From NCBI GenBank assembly GCA_964016885.1, contig OZ024740.1, positions 261,516,001-261,580,000 on the forward strand: 64,000 bases of DNA, read 5' to 3'. Origin of the DNA: Eledone cirrhosa (taxonomy: Eukaryota). Both the position numbers and the translations under genes were made by a program. The notes beneath the pieces were generated by a model. It made no database searches and had not been told where the DNA came from. It was given only the letters and a program-made list of their open reading frames with translations. Below, one piece after another: positions 7,735-20,705 of the stretch. Position 1 is the stretch's first letter, and each line of letters starts with the position of its first letter.

Positions 7735-8640
7735 AAATGAATGAAAAATGGCGTGCTGTGTTGTTGCATTTGTGATATACAAATTAAAATAAACAATTAG
7801 AAACCGGGACCATCCATCATCAGTGATCTACTAGCCATCATAGGTATTTCTTCGCATTAAAGACCAGATACCTCAGGCTAGCGCGAACAATAACTAAAAT
7901 AAGTTATTGGGATTAAAAGAATTGGGTGGAGAAAGAGAGAGAGGTGAACAAACAAGAATGGTGAGGCAACGTAAAGAGAGGAAAAATGAGAAAATCAAGT
8001 CAGTGATTCATTTGAACATAAGAACTTGCGAACAATGACGAGATGATGGATAGTCCTGTTTCTAATTCTTCATTTTAATTTGTATATCACATTTGCAACA
8101 ACACAACACGCCATTTTTCATTCATATATGCTTTTCCTCTTCGCTGTGACCTGTCTTTTTTCTCTTACCTTACTGCTATCCTCTTTCTCTCTCCCTCTTC
8201 TCTCTCCTTCTCCCTCTTACTTTCATTCTCCCCCTCTGCTAGTCACCCTCTCTCGGCTAGCCTCTTCCTCACACTTTCATTCACTCATTCTCTGCTACTC
8301 ACCCTCTCTCACTTCCTCCAGCGTCCGGCACCGTGCTAAATTCTTTTCTCGTTCACTTTTCGCACGGTACGGATGGTCTTTCGTCTTCTCGTCAATGTTC
8401 GCAAGTTCTTATGTTCAAATGAATCACTGACTTGATTTTCTCATTTTTCCTCTCTTTACGTTGCCTCACCATTCTTGTTTGTTCACCTGTCTCTCTTTCT
8501 CCACACAATTCTTTTATCCCAATAACTTATTTTAGTTATTGTTCGCGCTAGCCTGAGGTATCTAATCCTTAATGCGAAGAAATACCTATGATGGCTAGTA
8601 GACTGATGATGGATGGTCCTATTTCTAATTCTTCAATTGT
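7735..8640. mobile_element. Family C: inverted copy (7735-8043) plus a direct ~565-nt monomer; HHR-like core degenerate
   Basis: 7795-8043 is the reverse complement of 8386-8630, and 8042-8125 the reverse complement of 7735-7822; CTGATGA-TGGATGGTCC lacks a GAAA; (TA)n flanks. Confidence 0.75.
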
Positions 8641-9814
8641 ATATATATATATATATATATATATATAATATATATATATATTATTTGTATATATATATAT
8701 AATATATATATTATATATATATATATATCTTTTAGTGGTATGCAAATAAACATTGTTAATAAGAGGATGCCAAACGTTGGCGGGATTTGAACTCGTAACG
8801 TATGATGATAACGGCGAGTATGATGATCACAATGCCACACATAGAAAAGGAATAATTCATTTGTACAGAAACAGGATGAAAGAATAATAATAAAAAAGAA
8901 ATAAATAGAAATGTTTTCTTAAGTTGTTTATAATATCTACTGTATATATCCAGATATCAGTCTGAAGTAGTTTAAATACGATACTTTCATTGCCAGTAAA
9001 TGTATGCGTGTAGCTTTAATGCCTTCAGATTGTAAGACTTCAAAAGATAATCCTGTAGAGTATGTACATAGATATCCAGCATTATCTAGAAGGTCAATTG
9101 GCGATATAAGTGGTTTCATTTCATGCTGAGTTTCCTCAGAAAATGTCATTGTTCGTCGGACGCCATCTTGCTATTTCTATATGCATTTCTTCCTTGCTAT
9201 TTTCTTTATTTTCATTTACTGAGATGAAATATATTGAAAACGGTTGACCTCCATAGGTAGATATTGATTTCTTCGGACTAGGCACAAGGTTAATTTATGT
9301 AAAAATGTATAGTCAGTCTAACATCAAGAGATTCTTATATCGACTAGACCTCACCATATTCATACTATCAATTTTCTTATCTACCCATCCATCTATAGCT
9401 CTGTGATGTGCTGAATTCAAAACATTTTCTGGACACATCAGGATTTAATTGTCATATTTATCACATACCCCAATGAGTGCTACTCTCCCCCACAACCATT
9501 CTCACTACACAATGGAACATCCCAGACACATCTGTCATTCTCTGGTCCACACCTCCCACGCCTCCCCCTATCCCCTCCCTTAACCCAGTGCAAGATTTCC
9601 TGCCAGTTTATCACAATGACAGATTTGGCCATAGTACTACCAAGACAGCTAGTGAATTAATTCTACTCATCCTCACATAACATCCAAAGAGAAAAAAAAT
9701 ATTTTTCTTAACCCTAATACACTCTTCAGAAAGGCTTGCTGAACACAAGCCGAAACCGCTTGGCATCGCAGAAGTTTTAACCCCCCCCCTCTCTCTCACT
9801 ATATATATATATAT

Positions 9815-10585
9815 CAAATGAAAAAAACGGAGTTAGGGAGTTAGAAACTCGCGTTAATTACCTGTAATTTAATGAGTTCAAGGAATAAGTATCGGGCTCT
9901 TCATAATACAGTATATAGAGAAGAAAACATAAGAGTGAGAAGCAGAAAGTCTATGAAATGAGTAGAAAATACATATTAATTAAAAGAGTAAATCAAAATG
10001 TATGGACTAACCTTTATAACTATAAAACACCTGGACAAACTCTAAAAAGAGAATGATTCTTATCTATATACTTTGTTATGAAGAGCACGGTACTTATTCC
10101 TTGAGCTCATTAAATTACAGGGGATTAACGCGAGTTTCTAACTGTTTTTTTTTATTTGATATTTTGGCTCCTAACTAATTTCTTTATGTTAGTTGAGCTT
10201 CTTGCATTGAATGGTTATAGGCTGCTGTTTCTAGCGGTATGTTTTTATCCAATCAAGCCACTATGTACTGTCTAGTGCGCATGTTTTCGTCTCTTCTTTC
10301 ACCATGTGGTATATTTCAGTTGTCTGTTAGAAGTGTTGAACTATACTGTCTTTACACCTGTTGAGAAGCCCTGCGAGGTATAGTATCGGCGCTTATTATG
10401 GCGAAACATTCTCTTCTTAGAGTTTGTCCATGTGTTTTATAGTTATAAAGGTTGGTCTGTACATTTTGATTTACTCTTTTAATTAATATCTATTTTCCAC
10501 TCCTTTCGTAGACTTTATTCTTTTCACTCTAGTGGTTTTCTACCCCTCGTAATTGAAAACATACCGTTTTATGTTTTCTTCTTTA
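9815..10585. mobile_element. Family D: inverted circularly permuted copy (9815-10055) plus a direct ~530-nt monomer
   Basis: The inverted segment joins the end (CATTCTC...TTCTTCT) to the start (TATATACT...ATTTGA) of the direct copy; degenerate HHR-like GCC...GGCGAAAC at ~10358-10410; (TA)n flanks. Confidence 0.7.
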
Positions 10586-11223
10586 TATATATAAATATCA
10601 ATTTACTGAAGATATATAAATATATACACAAGTATAGACATACATATGGGATACTCCGACAGATACCAAGTTGGTTAGATGAAGGAATTAATAAAAACAA
10701 CTATTCAGAACATAATACAAATTAATCTGGGAAAAGCAGCCTTTTCAGTTGCCATTGTCCACATACCTTCTGTAGGACGCCAATCACGTGATAATTCTCA
10801 CCTTTTAAATTTCGCGGTTAGCGAACAACTCAGTCGAATTTCTTTCTCATTTGAAAATGTTCCCTGATGATTTGAGATTTTCACAGCTCATGCTTTGACA
10901 CACACACACACGCACACACACACACACACACACACACACACACACACACACACACACACACACACACACACACACACACACACACACACACACACACACA
11001 AACACACACACACACACGCACACACACGCACACACACACACACACACACACACACACACACACACACACACACACACACATATATATATATATATATATA
11101 TATATATATATATATAAACAAATAGTAGAGAGGAAAAAGATTTTTTGAGTAAAAAATGCTGAACAGATTCTTTCAGTATAATATCAAGACATTTATTTAT
11201 AAAGTGGATATTTCTGCATTTAA

Positions 11224-11260
11224 TAATACCGGTTTCAGCATTATGTGCTTTTTCAACTGC
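11224..11260 (-). ncRNA. Degenerate minimal HHR with U3-A8 core variant
   Basis: Reverse complement: GCAG TTGAAAA AGCA CATAA TGCT GAAACCGGTA TTAT; stem I imperfect. Confidence 0.55.
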
Positions 11261-18641: not shown

Positions 18642-19150
18642 AAGTATGTATACAGACGTACAGTAGTATGTATATATATATACATACATGCACACATATA
18701 TATATATGTACGTATGGATTCACCGAACATTTATTATAATGCTCGGTGTGTTTGTAAACAAACATCCCGTATTAAGCCGTAGTGTCTAGCAACCATCGTT
18801 GCTCGTTTGTTCAACACTGACAAAGGAACGCTGTACTAGTTTCAAGCTTATTAGCTATCGTCAGCAACGTATACCTTCCTGCCAGATGATTGAACGTCTG
18901 AAAGCATATACTCTCCCTATGCATATCAACGGCCGAGCAGCCTAATTTGCATATCGAGTGGGTTAATCAGCCGGGTGCACCGAAAACGATAAATGGATAA
19001 AATTAAACGAAATTTCATTTCCCACTCTTAGTACGGCTGTTACTTAAATATAAGTATGTATACGTACATACATCTATGTATACAAACGTACAATAGTATG
19101 TATATATATATATACATATATGCACACATATATATATGTGCGTATGGATT
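18642..19150 (-). mobile_element. Family A copy (~1.2 monomers) with an HHR at 18828-18870
   Basis: Closely similar to 2698-3131; terminal redundancy AAGTATGTA...CGTATGGATT; (TA)n flanks. Confidence 0.85.
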
Positions 19151-19159
19151 GTATATATA

Positions 19160-19945
19160 TATATATATATAAATATATATAGTGAAAAATGGAACGGGAA
19201 CAAAACAGAGAAGCAGTACAAACAAAGGTTTATTAGTTTCACGCTCTTGAGGGTGAGAGAGGGGGGGGACGTCTCAGGCATAATCCCTTCTTCTGGAGAA
19301 AAGTGGGTGTGAAGAGAGTTCCGAGGGTGTGTGGGGAGTGGTGGAGAGACATTTAGAATAAGAGGGGGAGAGGAAAGGGAGGAAAAACGGTGGAAGGGGT
19401 ACAAATAAAAATAAAAATAAACATGAAGATAAACAAGTGGTGGAAGGGTGTGGGGCGTGTAGGGGTGGTGGCGGGTGGAGTGGGGAGAGGGAGGTGGGGT
19501 GTCCGAGCGAGGAGGGCTGAAGATGGTGTTTGTGTATGTGTGTAGGTATACGTGTGTGCGTGTATGTGAATGTGAGAGTTGGGGGAAGAACGAGGTTCCA
19601 TGTTCAGGAAAAGGTGTGTGTGTGGAGTGGGGTGTAGGTCGGTGTGTGTGTGCGTGTGGATGGGGAGGGGTCAGAGGGGTGGGGAGGGGGGATTCGGAGG
19701 CTAAATGTGTATATATGTGGGGGTACGCACGTGTGGGTTGGTGTTTATACGTTTTGTGGATGTAGGTGGCGTGGTTCGATAAAAAATTGTGAGTGTATGT
19801 CCGTGTGTAAGTTCCTAAGGTAGTTCCGTAGAGGATGTAAAGGGATGCCGGATATTTTCCATGTTATGGAGTGGATAGTTGAAACGATGGCCGGTGGTGT
19901 GTAATCCGTTGGTTGTGGTGGTCGGAAGCGGGGAGATGTGGTATG
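19160..19945 (-). mobile_element. PLE 3' remnant (end of GIY-YIG region plus UTR with a degenerate HHR at ~19266-19296)
   Basis: Reverse complement encodes GHRFNYPLHNMENI and LGTY-like remnants; CAGAAGAAGGGATTATGCCTGAGACGTC. Confidence 0.5.
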
Positions 19946-19957
19946 TATATATATCTA

Positions 19958-20705
19958 TATCACGATGCATTAACGGAGCCATAGACTCTCGTTATTCCCT
20001 GTAAATAATGTGCTCAAAGGAGAGGAAATCCTGGGCACTTTAAAATACAATATGTTGAAAAGGTAACACACTAGAGAGTGATACAGTGCGCCATCAATAA
20101 AACAGAGAAAAACCACCAGTGTATGGAATCTATAACCTATGAAAGGCAGAATATAGACACGATAATTAAAAATATAAATTAAAGCGTAAATAAAATTATT
20201 TACAGGGAACGGCGAGAGTCTATGGTTCCGTTAATGTATCGTGATATTTCGCTCCTTATAACAGTCTTTTTCCTCTTTCTCTGTTTGGTTGAGCACACTT
20301 CTCTGAGTGGTTTTGGGCTGCCCTTTCTAGCAGCTCGTCCCCCAGAGGCCACTAGTTCACTGCCCTTAAACACGCTGTGACTTCTCTCTCCCACGTGTAG
20401 TTGGACGGCCGCTTTAAAAATTCTTTTAGTGTTGTCTGAAATGTATAGCCTAACACACGCTGATGAACCTGGGTTATTTCATTTCCGTCAACAACTTACT
20501 GGTGAAACAGATCACTTTGGATTTGTACGTGTGTTATATAGTTATAGAGGTATTTATTTGCGCTTTAATTTATATTTTTAATTATCGTGTCTATATTCTG
20601 CCTTTCATAGGTTATAGATTCCATACACTGGTGGTTTTTTCCCTGTTTTATTGATGGCACACTGTATCTCTCTCTAGTGTGTTATCTTTTCAACATATTG
20701 TATTA
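19958..20705. mobile_element. Family G: inverted permuted copy (19958-20195) plus a direct ~510-545-nt monomer with a full HHR
   Basis: 19958-20008 is the reverse complement of 20196-20248, and 20045-20192 of 20552-20703; (TA)n flanks. Confidence 0.85.
20451..20536 (+). ncRNA. Full-size type I hammerhead ribozyme (family G), predicted cleavage after A20527
   Basis: TAACACACG CTGATGA ACC...GGT GAA ACAGATC ACTTTG GATTTGT A CGTGTGTTA; 9-bp stem I, 7-bp stem III, intact core. Confidence 0.92.

Follow-up and report, generated by a model that had tools for sequence, protein, structure and literature searches.

Five short repeat families in a 64,000-nt stretch of the Eledone cirrhosa genome (the window; all coordinates are window positions unless a locus is named) are each found as an inverted partial copy followed by a direct copy. 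These families, designated A, C, D, E, and G, encode no protein. How are such repeats inserted, and what sets the two arms head to head? The answer proposed here, from sequence comparison, is that they are protein-free insertions of retrozyme type, for which a Penelope-type enzyme acting in trans probably cleaves both strands of a TA run, each end then priming complementary DNA (cDNA). The outer ends of the insertions are fixed, each arm uses one site, the targets are TA runs, the inner ends are scattered and show weak microhomology, and an element bearing an open reading frame (ORF) is inserted alike.

Repeat units and paired arms

Each family has a closed unit repeated head to tail, of 422 nt (A), 564 nt (C), 517 nt (D), 317 nt (E), or 542 nt (G), and the sequence common to the loci fetched from the genome is confined to this unit. 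Arrays of family A reach at least 6.8 units. Apart from one short stretch common to D and G, the five units are mutually dissimilar. No protein-coding ORF is found in any of them: the longest frames starting with ATG are 26-104 aa, and no reverse transcriptase (RT) or GIY-YIG ORF is present. Both halves of the hammerhead core, CUGANGA and GAAA, are kept in most core-spanning copies of A (120/137), E (44/49), and G (31/35), with stems I-III read by eye. These three families have the marks of retrozymes: a short head-to-tail unit, no ORF, and one type I hammerhead motif per unit.

Families C and D are not recognizable as hammerheads because the GAAA half is found in 0/101 core-spanning copies of C and CUGANGA in 0/15 of D. 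In the abundant family C (e.g., at 8603), CUGAUGA is kept together with a small hairpin in 89 of the 101 copies, which is like the "half core" noted for Naiads (PMC8557442). Both families behave like retrozymes, yet they are not classed as animal retrozymes lacking long terminal repeats (non-LTR retrozymes), since a type I hammerhead is missing. A scan against Rfam gives no hammerhead family among the matches listed (150 of 171), only microRNA-type matches driven by microsatellites.

The pairs were located by self-comparison of the window, and their arms match with E-values of 1e-17 to 0. The sequence-only reading had assigned the shared layout to 7735..20705; the layout is present at every junction it named, and family A lies outside that range. 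Unit positions are counted from the hammerhead core, and the outer 3' end of an arm is called short or long according to which of two sites of its family it reaches. In family A, the inverted arm (2695..3131, minus strand, 415 nt, hammerhead core at 2964) ends at the short site (~248-250) at (TA)n, and the direct arm (3128..3876, plus strand, 1.7 units of 422 nt) extends to the long site (306). The first base of the direct arm is 1 nt upstream of CUGACGA, and an intact minimal type I hammerhead motif is found at 3570. The GCTG microhomology seen earlier at 3128-3131 is indeed common to both arms.

In family C, the inverted arm (7733..8046, minus strand, 309 nt) reaches the long site (90) at (TA)n. 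The direct arm (8042..8650, plus strand, 610 nt against a unit of 564 nt) ends at the short site (48); it begins at position 3 of the CUGAUGA half core and lacks the GAAA half. As had been claimed, the direct copies of A and C thus start at or within the CUGA core. In family D, the inverted arm (9811..10059, minus strand) ends at the long site (317) and begins at or just 3' of GAAA, also as described before, although this hammerhead is degenerate. Its direct arm (10057..10589, plus strand) is about one unit of 517 nt and ends near the short site (225-234). In family E, the inverted arm (12808..13208, minus strand, 1.4 units of 317 nt, hammerhead core at 12983) ends at the short site (176), and the direct arm (13210..13515, plus strand, hammerhead core at 13315) ends at the long site (202-205). 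In family G, the inverted arm (19957..20194, minus strand, 238 nt) extends to the long site (331). The direct arm (20195..20707, plus strand, 511 nt of the 542-nt unit) carries a type I hammerhead core at 20460 and stops at the short site (243-247) at (TA)16. The G junction has no microhomology.

Two fixed outer ends, one per arm

The genome of the species itself (3.0 Gb) was searched with window queries. Each query gave 673-3,865 first-look candidates, and 40 per query, the best matches, were scored. After removal of duplicates, 255 insertions are available (59 of A, 84 of C, 36 of D, 39 of E, and 37 of G). They comprise 115 simple head-to-head insertions, 117 single arms, 23 complex insertions, and 0 tail-to-tail insertions. 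The complex ones indicate that template switching does occur.

Every family has two fixed 3' ends, at positions 250 and 306 (A), 48 and 90 (C), 234 and 317 (D), 176 and 202-205 (E), and 243 and 331 (G). The short and long sites are 26-88 nt apart, and this interval corresponds to the Penelope tail. Arms end on one of the two sites in 297 of 335 cases. (TA)n adjoins 249 of these 297 on-site ends and 6 of the 38 off-site ends; within (TA)n, a target-site duplication is unreadable. Among insertions outside the window, 116 have two outward 3' ends, and both ends are on-site in 85. One short and one long end are found in 79 of the 85, two long ends in 4, and two short ends in 2. The excess of mixed pairs is strong against an expectation of 50% (p=1e-17) and also against 2/3, the share to be expected were one long end imposed by the query (p=3e-10). 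The queries for C, D, and E favor the long end because they reach into the tail; in A and G by themselves, where the query imposes no long end, the count is 39/43. An unbiased sample of 80 evenly spaced 10-kb stretches (800 kb) contains 46 TA-bounded segments with inverted arms that reach one end. Their overhang is one-sided and 20-120 nt long in 28, absent (symmetric) in 8, 9-19 nt in 0, and longer than 120 nt in 10.

One long and one short end would likewise be expected if a symmetric or self-primed intermediate were resolved by endonuclease, with one arm clipped at the short site before integration, which is the reading given in PMC8557442. The short sites end in AT-rich motifs, and the endonuclease of Penelope-like elements (PLEs) prefers AT-rich DNA, its own pseudo-LTR included (PMC11167929). 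However, both sites act as starts of reverse transcription in vitro (PMC11167929), and single-arm insertions end at either site (7 short and 5 long in A, 7 and 7 in G). Across the families, single-arm insertions seldom hide a short inverted partner (1/109; another check gave about 4 further missed arms of the same family). Clipping alone also leaves two independent inner ends unexplained, and it is rather unlikely to be the source of the one-sided tail.

The same arrangement is found in an ORF-bearing element of the window, designated M. Its direct part (16470..18569, plus strand) is a 5'-truncated, broken Penelope-like element that ends at the short site at (TA)n and is interrupted by a repeat resembling a short interspersed element (SINE) at ~17537-17642. 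Its inverted pseudo-LTR (16062..16466, minus strand, hammerhead core at 16284) has an outer tail ~60 nt longer than the direct end. The broken frames contain YVDD and VVY..C..YIGET, which, read by eye, we take to be RT and GIY-YIG motifs; the one stop-free piece scanned against Pfam has no match. In 30 loci of family M, the two ends are 64 nt apart and are distributed one per arm in 6/6 simple two-arm loci; longer M ends could not show since the long end is the end of the reference. A second family A insertion, a single arm (18613..19150, minus strand), lies within the TA run that borders element M on the right. Another single-arm copy of family A, at 1757-2312 of locus L255, is inside an M copy and outside any TA run, and has an 11-nt flanking duplication.

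Inner ends, junctions, and template

The sequence-only reading suggested that the inversion breakpoints may lie at RT pause sites in the ribozyme, and it named breakpoints scattered along the monomer as evidence to the contrary. Inner ends were counted in 286 arms, with the 5 window loci and 32 loci chosen by a full-unit query dropped, and the expectation was taken from the arm lengths of the other families. They are scattered: 30 of 286 fall in the hammerhead region (30.9 expected), 5 in the core (6.3 expected), and 5 at the predicted cut site (2.0 expected, p=0.06). An apparent excess at the ribozyme in family C arose because the queries began at the core, and it is gone once those loci are dropped. 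The ribozyme thus has no apparent role in where the junction falls, and the pause idea fails at this point.

The lengths of the two arms of an insertion are uncorrelated (rho 0.02), and the inner ends are within 15 nt of each other in 15/105 insertions (9.9 expected, p=0.06). In 42 of 100 insertions, each arm includes sequence that the other lacks. Because of this, and because both arms end at fixed sites, a simple switch onto nascent cDNA is unsupported. The earlier comparison with the inverted pseudo-LTRs of PLEs therefore stands for the layout and not for template switching of this simple kind.

A fold-back copy could also be made by RT pausing at the hammerhead and switching to nascent cDNA, or by palindrome self-priming on an antisense template (PMC3846280). 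Three of the 10 window arms begin in or beside the core motif, the close inner ends and the cut-site count both lean this way, and the 23 complex insertions indicate switching. Nevertheless, the hammerhead and its core are not enriched, neither arm contains the other in the 42 insertions above, nothing in fold-back copying would make it halt at fixed sites, and C and D show the same layout without a complete core. As the main route, this is already largely refuted and quite improbable.

Microhomology at the junctions is genuine, though weak: the arms share 2 nt or more in 23/85 junctions without extra bases, against 13% in simulations (p=5e-4). This simulation-based test is relied on since the BLAST-overlap and exact-extension tests are noisy. 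Extra bases are not in excess (21/106, with 17% simulated).

Head-to-head arms are longer than one unit in 79/200 cases, and the RNA template is therefore multimeric or circular, in agreement with the earlier claim of a tandem or circular template. In D, E, and G the inverted arm runs across the point where the end of the direct copy meets its start, as first described; family C shows this too, which had been overlooked. In C, D, and G the crossing occurs simply because the inverted arm carries the one-sided tail. What had been called circular permutation is most likely 5' truncation, at random points, of a template that was multimeric or circular. Stops after a whole unit are not accepted as a sign of a circle: head-to-head insertions show no preference for arms about one unit long (6 against 4.8 expected). 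Among single arms there are 5 against 1.5 expected (p=0.014), two of them D cases at the query edge. In 60/87 insertions, the two arms resemble each other more than they resemble arms from other insertions. Identity in register, which the family A locus had suggested, is rejected as a mark of a heterogeneous linear multimer, since a register test within insertions shows no preference (179 and 198 informative sites).

It is hardly credible that the inversions arose in assembly or through later rearrangement of tandem arrays: AT-rich and microsatellite-rich repeats do assemble poorly, none of the pieces listed (16 of 238) bridges the G junction, and the bridging runs X1 and X2 are one sample and possibly the assembly's own source, but the C junction (8014-8087) is spanned by contigs from both runs and the D junction (10026-10105) by a contig from X1, each with 0 differences, the arms of one insertion differ by 3-10%, and fixed complementary outer ends in five families with no tail-to-tail case are unlike artefacts or random rearrangement.

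Proposed priming from both ends and known systems

In the proposed priming from both ends, the enzyme, probably a dimer, would bind multimeric or circular RNA. Each target 3'-OH would then start reverse transcription at one of the two internal sites, possibly helped by 2-4 nt of AT pairing. Both cDNAs would stop at unrelated, random points, and their 3' ends would be joined bluntly or by pairing of 1-5 nt and filled in. If only one end were primed, the product would be a plain 5'-truncated single arm.

More tentatively, the two primings may be coordinated, with the dimer holding one RNA and each half priming at its own fixed site. The inverted pseudo-LTR and the one-sided tail would then be the direct product, and separate complexes would give joins between families in which the one-site-per-arm rule lapses. 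Under coordinated priming, the mobilizing signal would be the tail region and not the hammerhead, since repeats without a ribozyme such as C would use the same route. Head-to-head joins of two families with both outer ends in TA are found at ~10 loci (e.g., A with C in L019, and M with an unnamed family in L243), and a small orientation control gives ~5 opposite and 2 same-orientation cases. When typed by eye, 2/6 of these joins are short-long, compared with 79/85 within families (Fisher p=0.001). They are a lead rather than a result, and deletion between neighboring insertions may explain them instead. Two candidates are rejected: in L004 the partner is itself a fold-back element, a case of such a deletion, and L255 is a nested insertion. 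In L016 (610-1588), the left arm starts at the short site of family E and passes, with its orientation unchanged, into family C ahead of the inversion, possibly an RNA-to-RNA switch between families.

Several points weigh against priming from both ends. The scored loci lean to young copies since they were picked as best matches to window queries. An off-site end is present in 31/116 two-ended insertions, likely due to later damage, and the one-site-per-arm rule is broken in 6/85. Microhomology is absent from 40/85 junctions, and the BLAST-overlap test is not significant (p=0.27). No autonomous partner for A, C, D, E, or G has been identified. In the experiments described in PMC11167929, the start sites used by the PLE protein of Anolis do not differ between the strands, and homology is absent where priming occurs, in contrast to the sites here, which are paired and end in AT. 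The absence of register preference fits units identical at insertion, both for a circle and for a young homogeneous array, and one RNA or two, circular or linear multimeric, are all compatible with the data.

The biochemistry reported in PMC11167929 fits priming from both ends. The Poseidon protein from Anolis (PAc), a predicted dimer, cuts and extends both strands in vitro, starts at two internal sites flanking the tail, and works without ribozyme cleavage. PAc thus agrees with the present insertions in the two adjacent start sites, the use of both strands and of AT-rich targets, and the dispensable ribozyme cleavage. It differs in that the in vitro account contains no strand-specific pairing of sites and leaves inverted products unexplained.

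PLEs are reported to have an inverted 5'-truncated copy, often a 30-40 bp tail at one end, and a bias to (TA)n, and how they form tandem and inverted structures is named an open question (PMC8557442). For Pen2a_Av, the head-to-head layout and a hypothesis of antisense self-priming are described (PMC3846280). The present insertions show this Penelope-type pattern, namely an inverted 5'-truncated copy at the 5' end, a one-sided tail, and a microsatellite or AT-rich target. They agree with endonuclease-bearing (EN+) PLEs (Pen2a_Av, PMC3846280; Naiad, Neptune, and Penelope, PMC8557442) in the adjacent inverted copy, the extension at one end, the (TA)n bias, and the partial tandems. They differ in having no ORF, tails of 26-88 nt rather than 30-40 nt, and mostly non-palindromic junctions. 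In those papers the tail is optional or often one-sided, whereas it is counted here as one site per arm.

With animal non-LTR retrozymes (PMC7229834; bioRxiv 10.64898/2026.07.22.740005), the families have in common short non-coding head-to-tail units, low GC, dispersed monomers and multimers, a proposed PLE origin, and, in A, E, and G, a type I hammerhead per unit. The differences are the unit lengths here (317-564 nt) and the spread of C and D without a complete core. An inverted arm or tail is absent from the retrozyme texts: "inverted" occurs 0 times in the main text of PMC7229834, and in the available text of 10.64898/2026.07.22.740005 the single occurrence of "inverted" is in a reference title, and "tail" is absent.

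Priming from a second target end has a parallel in LINE-1. In LINE-1 twin priming, the second target end primes on the RNA, and the inverted 5' part is joined by microhomology; the second primer lands at variable places beside the stop of the first cDNA. Here, by contrast, both primers are at fixed sites and the arms overlap freely.

The window holds other features. We presume from their motifs that two broken fragments, at 19170-19950 (minus strand) and 23460-24720 (plus strand), are Penelope-like; family G adjoins the truncated end of the first. Six further fold-back elements (2462-2568, 7152-7471, 25192-25631, 46032-46380, 46955-47450, and 47909-48100), several of which adjoin TA or TC runs, are probably more insertions of the same kind, and a relative of the one at 7152 is found at 24861-25046. 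Three related RT-bearing retroelement copies, 70-77% identical and with RVT_1 matches, are located at 31965-34677, 37076-39351, and 43082-45691. The SINE-like repeat that interrupts element M (~190 nt) has many other copies (21557-21745, 34953-35149, 36019-36211, 39871-41538, and 46648-48398). A 200-base assembly gap is present at 6359-6558. From 52707 to 64000 there is a (TTG)n-rich array of period 83/166, followed to the window end by ~560 copies of an 18-nt G-rich unit, with a GC skew of about +0.98.

The inverted arm with a one-sided tail is already published for Penelope elements. In the main texts of the open-access literature, no account of double priming for Penelope, no count of one site per arm, and no extension to retrozymes was found. 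The family-wide counts and the carriage of the Penelope layout by retrozyme-type repeats are apparently new. That Penelope enzymes move retrozymes has so far been inferred from sequence kinship (10.64898/2026.07.22.740005); here, five families without an ORF bear the full Penelope insertion mark. The counts speak for priming at both DNA ends rather than for fold-back copying or self-priming, and they predict for the in vitro system that the two ends of one cut target use different start sites. With ~46 TA-bounded inverted segments per 800 kb sampled, the genome of E. cirrhosa is a large natural data set for such insertions.

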